Assembly: GCA_018304175.1 (NCBI GenBank)
Contig: JAGVWT010000013.1
Location: 1-27,181, forward strand
Direction: 5' to 3'
DNA: 27,181 bases
Origin: Candidatus Pacearchaeota archaeon
GTDB lineage: Archaea; Nanobdellota; Nanobdellia; Pacearchaeales; GW2011-AR1
A program made the position numbers and the translations under genes. The notes under the pieces were generated by a model. The model worked only from the letters and a program-made list of their open reading frames with translations. It was not told where the DNA came from and made no database searches. Of this stretch, positions 23,511-26,975 are shown in pieces (the stretch's first letter is position 1; each line of letters opens with the position of its first letter).

Positions 23511-23541
23511 TCGGGTCTACTAACAGACATTAGTTTCAATT
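23511..23541 (+). repeat. Cassette junction D
   Basis: TC-GGGTCTACTAA-CAGACA-TTAGTTTCAAT-T. Confidence 0.85.
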
Positions 23542-23696
23542 CTGGGTTTACCTTACAGGTACGCTTCGCTACCGAAAATTCTAATGTTCTTATCTTCGTT
23601 AAAATCATAAAGAAAAAACTCACAAAATTACTTCATAACTTACCTAACAAAATTTTAACGAAATTGTTGAAAAATAAAAAATATAGAACGAAAGAT

Positions 23697-23966
23697 TTAT
23701 TCTTTTAGTTTCTTTTCCAACTCTCCAGAATTGTCTTGATTTTTTAGAATGTCCAACTTTTCATTAAAATATGCTCTTGCATATCTTACTCCATCTGCTA
23801 AAACTCCTGCGGTTAGCAATGAACCTCCACCAATCGCATATGTTTCAGTGTTGTCCATTCCAAACATATTTAGCATATAAGATGCTCCAATCAATCCAAT
23901 TCCAATTCCTTTCGCTACTGATTCGAGTGGAAAACCTTTGTATTCTGGTAAATGATTTTTTGTCAT
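23697..23966 (-). CDS. Cassette 1 cargo: small two-TM hypothetical protein
   Basis: 89 aa with Gly-rich hydrophobic helices; TATA (TTTATAAA) 23 nt upstream. Confidence 0.65.
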   Translation of the reverse strand: MTKNHLPEYKGFPLESVAKGIGIGLIGASYMLNMFGMDNTETYAIGGGSLLTAGVLADGVRYARAYFNEKLDILKNQDNSGELEKKLKE

Positions 23967-24134
23967 ACAATAAAGAATAAATCAATACTTTATAAATCTT
24001 TCGTTTATTTTACCACTTGAAAGTTAATAACTTATTTTTCAACAACTACGATAACAACGAATTTTCGGCAAACCCAGAACTCGAGATTTTTCGGCTTCGC
24101 CGAATGTTGCACTAAAATCTCGTCCTCATTTCAT

Positions 24135-24165
24135 TCGGAGAAACTAACAGCGATTAAGTGAAATT
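24135..24165 (+). repeat. Cassette junction E
   Basis: TC-GGAGAAACTAA-CAGCGA-TTAAGTGAAAT-T. Confidence 0.85.
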
Positions 24166-24205
24166 CACTCCGCCGCCGCAAACATTATAAAGTTGTTCAA
24201 TTTAA

Positions 24206-24748
24206 ATGATAATTATGGCAAACATTCCTGAATGGCAATATCCCTTATACAAAGAACCCGATAAAGTTGCCTACGCAATTTTAGAAAAAATAGGAAAATC
24301 AAAATTATATCCTAAACTTGTCGGCTCAAAAGAGGAAATAAATGATTTTCTAAAATTGCTTGTTGTCAGCCAGAAGATGAAATATTATCGTAAGTTTCGG
24401 GATATTGCCTTGAATGAGTTCAAGAAAAAAGAGGCAAACATTCCAAAAATCTTGGACGAAAGCAAAAATCTTGAAATTCCAAGAGGCATTGATGAATCTT
24501 GGGCAATTTTTATTCAGGATAAAAGACTCTGCAAGTTAATGGATAAATTTCAAGATGCCAAGATTCAATTCATCGGAAATGATGATGAAGTTTCTGAATT
24601 CTTTGTTAGATTTTTGCTTTCTCAACTGCTACAAGATTGGAGAGGCCCTTTAATGGCTGTTCTTTTGGAATGTTTGCAGGATAAAAAAGTAAAGATTGCT
24701 AAATTGAACAACTTATTGAAGATTTGGGATTATACTAAAGTATTCTAG
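24206..24748 (+). CDS. Cassette 2 cargo: hypothetical helical protein with internal duplication
   Basis: 180-aa ORF filling the cassette; LVGSKEEINDFLKLLVVSQ vs FIGNDDEVSEFFVRFLLSQ. Confidence 0.75.
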   Translation: MIIMANIPEWQYPLYKEPDKVAYAILEKIGKSKLYPKLVGSKEEINDFLKLLVVSQKMKYYRKFRDIALNEFKKKEANIPKILDESKNLEIPRGIDESWAIFIQDKRLCKLMDKFQDAKIQFIGNDDEVSEFFVRFLLSQLLQDWRGPLMAVLLECLQDKKVKIAKLNNLLKIWDYTKVF

Positions 24749-24817
24749 GCGGCGGCTCCGTGAACTTGCTCCGCTTCGCTCCGCACCCCGCTGCGCTCTC
24801 ACTCCATTTCATTCCGT

Positions 24818-24848
24818 TCGGGTCACTTAACAGGGCTTATCTGTAATT
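24818..24848 (+). repeat. Cassette junction F
   Basis: TC-GGGTCACTTAA-CAGGGC-TTATCTGTAAT-T. Confidence 0.85.
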
Positions 24849-24906
24849 CACTTTTTGGCTCAAAGCAACGATAACTTTATTAAGAAAATAATATGTTCCT
24901 AACAGT

Positions 24907-25632
24907 ATGGATGTTTCAAATTATAAAGACTCGGAATTTTTAGAAAAATACAAGAAGGCGCCCCTACTTCATCCTTTTGTTGTTTTTCCTGCTTTGCACA
25001 AAGCTCTTGGTGATGTGAAAAACAAAAAGGTATTGGATTTAGGTTGTGGCTCTGGCGATTTTTCACATTCTCTTGTTGAGAGAGGGGCAAATGTTATTGG
25101 TGTTGATGTCTCTGAAAAATGGATTGACATTTGCAAAAAAGAATATGCTAATGTGAAAAATCTTGGATTTTTTGTTGCTGATGGTTCTAATCTCAAACAA
25201 CTCGCTGATGATACTTTTGACTTTGTTGTTATGAATATGGTTTTGCTGAATGTTCCAACATTGGACAAAGTCAAAAAAATATTTCAAGAAGTTTCAAGAG
25301 TCCTTAAAAAATCCGGTCAGTTGATATTTACAGATTTACATCCTCTTGCTTTAATGATTGAAAAAACTTTGTGTGAATCCCAAACTTATCTTCCCGGATT
25401 TTCTTATTTTAAAGATGGCTCTAAATTCAAATCAAAAGTTAAACTTACAGATGGCTCTGAAATTGAATTTGGAGATATTCATTGGACTCTTGAAACTTAC
25501 ACTCGTTGTTTGAGTGATTCAAAAATGTGCATCATCAGAATTATTGAGCCACAACCTATTAACGAGGCGCCTTCTTTCTTGAAAGATTATAAAATTCCGG
25601 AACATATTATTCTAGTATGTAATAAACATTAG
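24907..25632 (+). CDS. Cassette 3 cargo: class I SAM-dependent methyltransferase
   Basis: VLDLGCGSG motif I, VIGVDVS, FDFVVMNMVL, LKKSGQLIFTDLHP. Confidence 0.92.
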   Translation: MDVSNYKDSEFLEKYKKAPLLHPFVVFPALHKALGDVKNKKVLDLGCGSGDFSHSLVERGANVIGVDVSEKWIDICKKEYANVKNLGFFVADGSNLKQLADDTFDFVVMNMVLLNVPTLDKVKKIFQEVSRVLKKSGQLIFTDLHPLALMIEKTLCESQTYLPGFSYFKDGSKFKSKVKLTDGSEIEFGDIHWTLETYTRCLSDSKMCIIRIIEPQPINEAPSFLKDYKIPEHIILVCNKH

Positions 25633-25697
25633 GTCGCCAAAAAGTGAACTTGCTCCGCTTCGCTACGCACCCCGCTGCACTCTCCTCCTTTCAGTCG

Positions 25698-25728
25698 TCG
25701 GGACAGATAACAAGGGTTATATTCAATT
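25698..25728 (+). repeat. Cassette junction G
   Basis: TC-GGGACAGATAA-CAAGGG-TTATATTCAAT-T. Confidence 0.85.
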
Positions 25729-25796
25729 TTGTATTTGAGAACAAAGAAAGAGTCCCTTTAGAAACTTTTATAATATTCTTAATTTCATCTATTTAT

Positions 25797-26237
25797 ATGA
25801 CAGAAAAATATCAAAAAATCACTGTTGGAGGATTGCTTGTAAAAAATAATAAAGTTCTTGTTGTTAGAAGATCTTCTGCTGAACCCTACTTAACAGGATA
25901 TTACGAATTACCTGGAGGAAAAGTTGACTTTGGAGATCATCCAAAAGAAAGTCTTGAAAGAGAGTTTATGGAAGAAGTAAATCTCAAAGTCATAGCGTTA
26001 CATCCATATCGAGTATTCACTTACATTTCTGATAAAGGAAATCGTCATACTGTTGAATTAGTATATTTTGTTGAATTAGATGACGATACTAAAAATATTA
26101 AATTAAGTGAAGAACATGACGATTTCAAATGGATTTCAGCAGAAGAAGTCGATGATTTACAAATTAGTGATGAAATTAAAATGAACATTAAAGTTGGTTT
26201 CAAAGAAATTGAAGACTGGGCTCTTTCTAAAAAATAG
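25797..26237 (+). CDS. Cassette 4 cargo: NUDIX hydrolase (MutT-like); true start ATG 25797, not 25644
   Basis: Nudix box GGKVDFGDHPKESLEREFMEEVNL; LSEEHDDFKW; TATA TTTTATAA 24 nt upstream of ATG 25797. Confidence 0.93.
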   Translation: MTEKYQKITVGGLLVKNNKVLVVRRSSAEPYLTGYYELPGGKVDFGDHPKESLEREFMEEVNLKVIALHPYRVFTYISDKGNRHTVELVYFVELDDDTKNIKLSEEHDDFKWISAEEVDDLQISDEIKMNIKVGFKEIEDWALSKK

Positions 26238-26322
26238 ACTCCCTTCGGTCGAGATTAATAATAGTTCTCAAATACAAAACTCTGAAATTTCCCTTCGGAA
26301 CGTTGCACTAAATTTCAGCCCT

Positions 26323-26353
26323 TCGGAGAATATAACAGGAATTATACGAAATT
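26323..26353 (+). repeat. Cassette junction H
   Basis: TC-GGAGAATATAA-CAGGAA-TTATACGAAAT-T. Confidence 0.85.
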
Positions 26354-26405
26354 GAAAGTCAGCCCTACCAAAATGTTTTTAATATCTAACTGAAATCAAA
26401 TAACT

Positions 26406-26921
26406 ATGGCACACATAAATATTGAAATCAAAGCAAAATCAAACAATCAAGATGCGATAAGAGAAATCTTAAAATCAAAGAATGCCGACTTTAAAGGTGT
26501 TGATCATCAAATTGATACATACTTTAAAGTTAATAATGGTAGACTAAAATTAAGGGAAGGAAAAATTGAAAATCACTTAATTCATTATCAAAGAGAAAAT
26601 AAAGAAGGTCCAAAACAATCAGATGTAACTTTGTTTAAATCTGACCCCAAATCTTCGTTAAAAGAAATTTTAACCAAAGCATTGGGAATTTTAGTTGTAG
26701 TTGATAAAAAGAGAGAAATTTATTTTTTTGATAATGTGAAATTCCATATTGATATCGTTGAAGATTTGGGGACATTTGTTGAGATTGAAGCCATTGATAA
26801 TGATGGCACGATTGGGAAAGATAAATTACTTGAACAATGTCAATTTTTCCTTGATTTATTTAAGATTTCTCAAGAAGATTTGATTTCAGTCTCTTATAGC
26901 GATTTATTATTGCAAAAATAA
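26406..26921 (+). CDS. Cassette 5 cargo: CYTH-domain protein (class IV adenylate cyclase-like)
   Basis: NIEIKAK (ExExK), QIDTYF, LKLR, VVVDKKREIY, KFHIDIVEDLGTFVEIE. Confidence 0.92.
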   Translation: MAHINIEIKAKSNNQDAIREILKSKNADFKGVDHQIDTYFKVNNGRLKLREGKIENHLIHYQRENKEGPKQSDVTLFKSDPKSSLKEILTKALGILVVVDKKREIYFFDNVKFHIDIVEDLGTFVEIEAIDNDGTIGKDKLLEQCQFFLDLFKISQEDLISVSYSDLLLQK

Positions 26922-26975
26922 TGGGCTGACTTTCAACTCAAGAGGACGCTGCGCTTTCGCTCCACTTCGTTACGC

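Follow-up and report, generated by a model that had tools for sequence, protein, structure and literature searches.

A row of one-gene cassettes was analyzed in a window of 27,181 nucleotides, which is the complete 27-kb contig JAGVWT010000013.1 of a Candidatus Pacearchaeota archaeon (assembly GCA_018304175.1, 544 kb in total and 88% complete). The genes c1 to c5 are each bracketed by an inverted repeat of their own, and in the reading that we hold to be somewhat better than an even chance, these repeats are the outer part of the stem by which each cassette is closed, in an integron-like array that is served by a recombinase paralogous to archaeal XerA. The units follow one another on the plus strand, heading away from the recombinase gene, which lies on the minus strand (Table 1), and their products include a DUF5680 protein, an 89-aa protein, a 180-aa orphan, an S-adenosylmethionine (SAM) methyltransferase, a Nudix hydrolase and a CYTH protein. 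The separators between the units are six copies of TCGGR-N5-TAACA-N4-TTA-N5-AATT, and a whole-genome pattern search reveals no further copies in the genome. A recombinase gene that is divergent from short, mostly co-oriented cassettes of variable content is a layout of the integron type, and the same adjacent and divergent arrangement is present in four other genomes.

All six junctions of the window have the form CGGR-N5'-TAA / CANNNN / TTA-N5-AAT, in which a 6-nt spacer (CANNNN) separates the two half-sites of a dif-like 11-6-11 core, a layout that is also that of archaeal dif (PMC5357621). The 28-bp site expected of XerA/dif, with two 11-bp inverted arms and a 6-bp spacer, is found at these six junctions and at a first site at 22822-22849; however, seven such sites stand in tandem in the window, in contrast to XerA/dif, where a single conserved site on the chromosome serves dimer resolution. 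A comparison of the half-sites reveals that the pairing partners sit across the cassette. In c1-c4, the left half-site of each junction has an N5' that is the reverse complement, at all five positions, of the N5 in the right half-site of the preceding junction. In a non-redundant set of 204 junctions from 146 loci, which were found with a profile built from junctions, the two half-sites inside one junction are complementary in only 10 cases, whereas the half-sites across one cassette are complementary at 5/5 positions in 35 of 65 cassettes, compared with 4% of non-cognate pairs. Each cassette therefore owns a right half-site at its 5' end and a left half-site at its 3' end that are mutually complementary, and 72 different right-arm N5 sequences are observed across the loci. 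The single contiguous, imperfect palindrome (R''-L''...L'-R') that attC forms at the 3' end of an integron cassette, with a G|TT crossover that takes only 6 nt from the following cassette, is not seen here. Inverse half-sites that travel with the module, as in the dif modules of Acinetobacter, are present, and the alternation of C and D module types and the two recombinases of those modules do not apply here.

An earlier note on this DNA had placed a separate inverted repeat around each of the genes c1 to c5, and all ten arms are recovered in place (Table 1). The note did not mention that the arms of c1 and c2 are imperfect; those of c3, c4 and c5 pair perfectly. Its statement that the downstream copy ends in AACT opposite AATT is borne out at 24078, 24763, 25647, 26278 and 26935, with AA before every 5' arm, and the segments between the 3' arms and TCGGR, referred to here as bodies, span the 37-53 nt that it had given.

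Among 200 other genomes of the family, 15 contain the strict core pattern and a backwards control gave no match, and the core pattern is also found in many records of Pacearchaeota, Woesearchaeota and Nanoarchaeota and in metagenome contigs. Enough upstream DNA was available for 172 junctions from the window, its relatives and metagenomes; a repeat was called when at least 11 nt were paired and the repeat ended 28-76 nt before the left half-site, and the reversed partner region served as the control. A repeat is present in 69 of these junctions and in none of the 172 reversed controls, in which at most 10 nt are paired, and the repeats are not due to chance. The partner follows directly after TTA-N5-AA in 65 of the 69 repeats. 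In a motif-free search, the flanks AA and CT are found on 36 of 74 perfect repeats of at least 10 nt, and the first base of the repeat is T in 35 of these 36. The fourth position of the flanking step covaries (AATT/AACT in 51 junctions, AATA/TACT in 11 and AATC/GACT in 7), which leaves AAT and ACT as the invariant elements, in which an A faces a C. The private repeat is 10-17 bp long (median 14), and its gene-proximal (distal) 6 nt have a GC content of 55-76%, compared with 31% in cassette interiors, which constitutes a GC clamp. Additionally, compensatory changes are found in the repeats of homologous cassettes, namely c1 of the window and its counterparts in loci L107 and L203; clustering of the cassettes at the protein level, performed to find further compensatory changes, yielded two small groups only, and the internal mismatches of the repeats are too few for a comparison of strand bias. 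The GC clamp, the compensatory changes and the 72 different arm sequences point to selection on pairing. The arms, the covariation and the predicted folds described below agree with the proposal of a repeat that is specific to its cassette and extends the pairing of the half-sites beyond a fixed AAT/ACT step.

The body, which spans 28-76 nt across the junctions, is also conserved. Of 197 junctions, 124 have a body motif of the form CCACGYTGCRCTCTC approximately 30 nt ahead of the left half-site, compared with 5 in shuffled sequences (for example, at 24120-24128 and 25675-25685 in the window), and this conserved motif could be a second protein-binding site. A match of the AAT/ACT triplets to the outer triplet of the dif arms of relatives was considered and dropped, as the three examples were mutually inconsistent.

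The circle junctions were rebuilt with the crossover in the spacer, and both strands were folded as single-stranded DNA with DNA parameters; a branched stem is favored. The mean helix probability is 0.9 for the repeat and 0.94 for the arms where these match, and when whole cassettes of 650-900 nt with flanks are folded, an end-to-end stem is part of the minimum-energy structure in all five cassettes and on both strands. A rebuild with the crossover at AA|TT, which gave the repeat stem but not the continuous strand, was replaced after the match of half-sites across the cassette had been seen. The earlier note had proposed that TTA-N5-AATT and the repeat are paired continuously, and this is the case in c1-c4 and not in c5; because the continuous strand includes a right half-site that belongs to the upstream junction, continuous pairing requires that the crossover lie within the 6-nt spacer. 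The body is looped out at one fixed position, as had been proposed; however, it folds by itself, usually into two hairpins, such that the top strand forms a four-way junction in 28 of 34 cases and the three-way junction of the proposal in only 4. The single C.A mismatch is likewise invariant in position, but the continuous helix drawn around it is idealized, since the C.A position is never paired in the top strand and the neighboring T-A pair has a probability below 0.1. The bottom strand has a T.G at this position, which is paired with a probability of approximately 0.57. The bottom strand is the more stable one in 56 of 64 cassettes, by a mean of 1.28 kcal/mol (Wilcoxon p = 4e-8, for cassettes that are not fully independent), because it has T.G where the top strand has C.A, and this is the sole strand asymmetry that could be measured. 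The comparison of the mismatch and branch with the extrahelical bases of attC is a reasonable analogy, and it is only an analogy because the enzyme does not have the IntI domain that binds those bases. The interpretation put forward in the earlier note is, in sum, partly supported.

The position of the crossover was examined in a small sample by comparing copies of one cassette that have different surroundings. Homologous cassettes share the upstream right half-site in 8 of 10 cases and never share the downstream one, and the 3' spacer tends to stay with the cassette. The TTCAGAATTCGGGC cassette is found in three or four loci, among which the right half-site, body, left half-site and 3' spacer CAGGAA are kept, whereas the 5' spacer and the neighbors differ. 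These comparisons favor a unit that probably extends from TTA to TAA plus the spacer, with exchange near the border between the spacer and TTA.

The recombinase has a score of 217.8 bits against the NCBIfam model XerA_Arch (NF040815), for which the cut-off is 220, and of 180 against the integron integrase model TIGR02249, for which the cut-off is 265 and which it matches in two pieces. Its closest relatives of known structure are the XerA proteins of Pyrococcus and Thermoplasma (4a8e and 5hxy). In an alignment to VchIntIA (2a3v), the recombinase has 18 residues in place of the 59 of IntI, and the IntI-specific additional domain around patch III is absent. Among the array-linked recombinases, no clade-specific insert or added domain was found, and they are collinear with the general XerA clade. 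In the phylogenetic tree, the array-linked recombinases form a clade of their own with a support of 100/100 and a long branch, separate from the general XerA group, and in four genomes a general XerA is present together with an array-linked recombinase. Orthologs with 52-79% identity adjoin arrays, in divergent orientation, in relatives. The 88%-complete genome (G000) yielded no recombinase of the general XerA clade; a further tyrosine recombinase gene in it, which is more distantly related (PF00589, 88.9 bits), is located on contig C1 at about 987-1748 on the minus strand.

From these features, we infer how the folded strand may be used. The crossover would lie in the spacer, probably at its border with TTA, and a cassette that is single-stranded, whether as an excised circle or within part of the array, would zip its ends into a stem of 22-30 bp with a side branch. 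In a circle, such a stem would place the spacer at the tip of a hairpin, whereas in the array it would join both crossover points of one cassette at the base of one stem. Past the AAT/ACT step, the pairing runs on for 10-17 bp in the private GC-clamped repeat, which would supply most of the stability (roughly -20 kcal/mol) and complete positions 9-11 of the 11-bp half-site duplex, and on the 3' side, the conserved body of 28-76 nt and TCGGR lie between the two paired segments. The repeat, the branch and the fixed A.C (top) or T.G (bottom) pair would render the two strands unequal, in the manner of the unpaired features of attC, and may in this way govern the choice of strand. By this analogy, the site would be attC-like in its logic and inverted in its geometry. 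More broadly, it is possible, although we would not quite give it an even chance, that the array represents a second, independently built system of cassette capture in DPANN archaea, in which folded single strands are the substrate of a XerA paralog that has no IntI domain, the hairpin is split at its tip and the cassette is the loop, and the private GC-clamped stem, the extruded branch and the T.G/A.C pair set the stability and the choice of strand.

Several observations weigh against a role of the fold in recombination. The repeat is present in only 40% of the junctions, with perfectly matched half-sites in about half of those, and the half-sites of c5 match at only 2/5 positions. The homologs of c1 in L035, L037 and L203 carry swapped half-sites or bodies, which indicates that breakpoints at AAT|T and A|CT occur too. 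The energy gap between the two strands is small, the recombinase has a plain XerA architecture with no added domain, and XerA acts on duplex dif (PMC5357621).

One alternative, which we regard as unlikely though it keeps appreciable weight, is that double-stranded 11-6-11 cores are exchanged, as by XerA at dif and XerCD at pdif, and that the cassettes simply carry the inner half-sites; the repeat and body would then serve termination, insulation or as a site for an accessory protein, or would be a relic of cassette making. Both the core geometry of archaeal dif and the plain architecture of the enzyme fit such a reaction (PMC5357621), as do the dif modules of Acinetobacter, which are bounded by like half-sites in inverse orientation (PMC13141974), and the first site, which resembles the palindromic dif beside the single XerA of relatives. 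However, binding of duplex DNA by a protein would explain neither the match of 72 different N5 sequences across the cassette nor the private GC-clamped repeat with its compensatory changes. Moreover, the AT-rich region seen by eye after the 5' arm would leave this arm outside the mRNA of its own cassette.

The geometry of canonical integrons, with a crossover at AA|TT, a cassette composed of a gene and its downstream site, and the repeat as an unusually long R''/R' box that is re-formed in the circle, appears improbable. The AAC that ends the 3' arm and the ATT that starts the 5' arm resemble RYYYAAC/GTTRRRY, the homology breaks at AAT|T or A|CT in the c1 homologs L037 and L035, and the rebuild with the AA|TT crossover folds into a repeat stem with inner hairpins, all of which would suit this geometry. 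It is nevertheless contradicted by the identity of the half-sites that match and of those that move with the cassette: it is the right half-site upstream that matches the left half-site of the cassette itself, with few matches within a junction, and homologous cassettes retain the upstream right half-site and never the downstream one. A role in RNA, in which read-through transcripts would pair the cassette ends for processing or stability, is very improbable, for although the repeat brackets each open reading frame and the bottom-strand T.G would be G.U in RNA, this G.U would exist only in an antisense transcript, no Rfam family is matched at the gathering threshold in the entire window, and the stem contains the recombination half-sites and adjoins the recombinase.

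The attC sites of integrons are folded bottom-strand hairpins with R and L boxes, extrahelical bases, an unpaired central spacer and a variable terminal structure (PMC5027507, PMC2727003), and the extrahelical bases are read by a domain of IntI (PMC5027507). The archaeal array shares with integrons a divergent recombinase, one-gene cassettes, variable sequence with conserved pairing, a cassette start that supplies part of the stem, and fixed unpaired features that make the strands unequal. It differs in that the recombinase lacks the IntI-specific domain, and in that the split in the palindrome falls at the tip, within the 6-nt spacer, rather than near the base, so that the two halves are 0.3-1.6 kb apart around a gene. 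Additionally, the private stem has 10-17 bp, compared with 7 bp for the R box, and a conserved branch of 28-76 nt stands where attC has single extrahelical bases. In integration of the CTX-phi type, XerCD reportedly act on a folded single-stranded phage site (Val and colleagues, in 2005). That system likewise has a Xer enzyme that acts on an imperfectly paired hairpin resembling a duplex site, but its phage site consists of two adjacent dif-like halves, with no cassette array and no cassette-wide pairing.

The XerA-type enzyme, the 11-6-11 core, TAA and TTA beside the spacer, and a site beside the gene are shared with archaeal XerA/dif, including xerA/dif modules (PMC5357621), whereas the many tandem sites, the private half-sites, the extra repeat and body, and the separate clade beside the general XerA are not. 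As in the dif modules of Acinetobacter plasmids, Xer half-sites travel with the module and face each other in inverted orientation; those modules differ in having fixed XerC or XerD sequences and alternating module types, and no private repeat, branch or fold is described for them (PMC13141974). Arrays named rAID-1 in Bacteroidales combine a XerD-like recombinase with integron-like intergenic repeats (bioRxiv 10.1101/471110), and integrons and integrase-less attC clusters are known from metagenome-assembled genomes (MAGs) of archaea (PMC9668308). With these, the present array has in common that cassette-like rows are tied to a Xer-family recombinase or lack IntI; the lineage and site sequence are different, and the accessible parts of those two accounts report no analysis of site structure, private stem or mismatch. 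No description of the archaeal system or its stem was found in the literature, in which rAID-1 and dif modules are the nearest in print. As far as the portions consulted extend, we found the split, branched site in none of the published accounts of archaeal integrons, rAID-1 and dif modules.

To our knowledge, integrons are the only well-studied tyrosine recombinase system that reads folded single-stranded DNA to shuffle cassettes. The reading of folded DNA is usually tied to the IntI-specific domain. Conserved pairing without conserved sequence, together with fixed imperfections, is the type of evidence that first pointed to folded attC, and it is found here beside a plain Xer-type archaeal enzyme and in a different geometry. 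Use of the fold would mean that cassette recombination guided by structure has more than one origin; it would also offer a simple model for the growth of integrons out of Xer/dif and might account for some of the integrase-less cassette rows of archaeal genomes. The private stem also provides a practical rule for locating cassette ends in such genomes.

Table 1. Positions of the recombinase gene, the first site and the cassette ends in the window.
Feature	Position	Strand	Remarks
Tyrosine recombinase gene, 282 aa	21859..22707	(-)	XerA paralog of the array-linked clade, without IntI insert; Pfam PF00589, 1.6e-43
First, attI-like site AGT-TCGTT-AAA / AGCCTG / TTA-GTAGA-AAT	22822..22849	(+)	114 nt upstream of recombinase start; same site in same place in relatives
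Cassette c0	22839-23529		Matched half-sites GTAGA / TCTAC; DUF5680 gene on minus strand
c1 continuous strand: right half-site TTA-GTTTC-AA + repeat TTCTGGGTTTACC	23530..23552	(+)	
c1 3' arm GGCAAACCCAGAA + CT	24067..24081	(+)	One A.C mismatch with 5' arm; compensatory changes in homologs L107, L203
c1 predicted extruded branch: body + TCGGA	24082..24139	(+)	Body 53 nt
c1 left half-site GAAAC-TAA + 6-nt spacer CAGCGA	24140..24153	(+)	5/5 complementary to right half-site 23533-23537
c2 continuous strand: TTA-AGTGA-AA + repeat TTCACTCCGCCGCCGC	24154..24179	(+)	
c2 3' arm GCGGCGGCTCCGTGAA + CT	24749..24766	(+)	5 + 8 bp around 3x3 internal loop (TCC opposite TCC)
c2 predicted extruded branch: body + TCGGG	24767..24822	(+)	Body 51 nt
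c2 left half-site TCACT-TAA + spacer CAGGGC	24823..24836	(+)	5/5 complementary to 24157-24161
c3 continuous strand: TTA-TCTGT-AA + repeat TTCACTTTTTGGC	24837..24859	(+)	
c3 3' arm GCCAAAAAGTGAA + CT	25636..25650	(+)	Perfect 13 bp
c3 predicted extruded branch: body + TCGGG	25651..25702	(+)	Body 47 nt
c3 left half-site ACAGA-TAA + spacer CAAGGG	25703..25716	(+)	5/5 complementary to 24840-24844
c4 continuous strand: TTA-TATTC-AA + repeat TTTTGTATTTGAGAAC	25717..25742	(+)	
c4 3' arm GTTCTCAAATACAAAA + CT	26264..26281	(+)	Perfect 16 bp
c4 predicted extruded branch: body + TCGGA	26282..26327	(+)	Body 41 nt
c4 left half-site GAATA-TAA + spacer CAGGAA	26328..26341	(+)	5/5 complementary to 25720-25724
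c5 continuous strand: TTA-TACGA-AA + repeat TTGAAAGTCAGCCC	26342..26365	(+)	
c5 3' arm GGGCTGACTTTCAA + CT	26923..26938	(+)	Perfect 14 bp
c5 predicted extruded branch: body + TCGGG	26939..26980	(+)	Body 37 nt
c5 left half-site ACACA-TAA + spacer CAAGGG	26981..26994	(+)	Only 2/5 complementary to its own right half-site
c6 start: TTA-GTTTC-AA + TTGCTCGGCGGCGGC	26995..27019	(+)	Partner past contig end

The first site has the consensus A(G/C/A)T-TCGNN-WAA / AGYCTG / TTA-N5-AAT in relatives, where it lies about 110-150 nt upstream of the recombinase gene, and it is kept in both position and sequence in six of the compared genomes. Its left arm is similar to the palindromic site beside the single XerA of two near-complete relatives, and its spacer, NNNCTG, is the reverse of the CAGNNN at cassette junctions. 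In cassette c0, a tiny hairpin, TTTTTGC-TAC-GCAAAAA followed by CT, is located directly after the right half-site and resembles an empty repeat pair, and nested inverted repeats are formed by GATTAATTTTAG / CTAAAATTAATC and by GAAGGCATGCC at 22903 / GGCATGCCTTC at 23433. A platform with one gene-less mini-cassette is found at 2906-3110 of locus L282 in a near-complete relative (G002), where the mini-cassette has the matched half-sites AACGA / TCGTT and the repeat TTTTTGCCCC / GGGGCAAAAA followed by CT, and also in two further loci (L025 and L038). The arrays of several genomes close with a recurring terminal sequence, TTA-AGAGG...CTCGTTGCACTT...CTCCCA.

A second core-like site, TAA-CAAAAT-TTT-AACGA-AATT, is present within c1 (23645-24047); it has its own repeat, TTGTTGAAAAATAA / TTATTTTTCAACAA followed by CT, which encloses the 89-aa gene on the minus strand, and its right arm matches, in reverse complement, the left arm of the first site. 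G021, G145, L107 and L203 all retain the outer shell of c1, and the inner gene is different in L037. The 180-aa protein of c2 (gene 24206-24748) has no Pfam or NCBIfam match, and no relatives of it were found among 400 genomes of the family, which include two of the same genus. Genes for PCNA and an archaeal primase subunit are also present in the window. An AT-rich, TATA-like stretch is seen by eye between the 5' repeat arm and the start codon of each cassette (24180-24205, 24860-24906, 25743-25796 and 26366-26405), so that the cassettes, unlike most integron cassettes, may carry their own promoters. In relatives, CTAAA follows many of the 5' arms, and ACG precedes many of the 3' arms.

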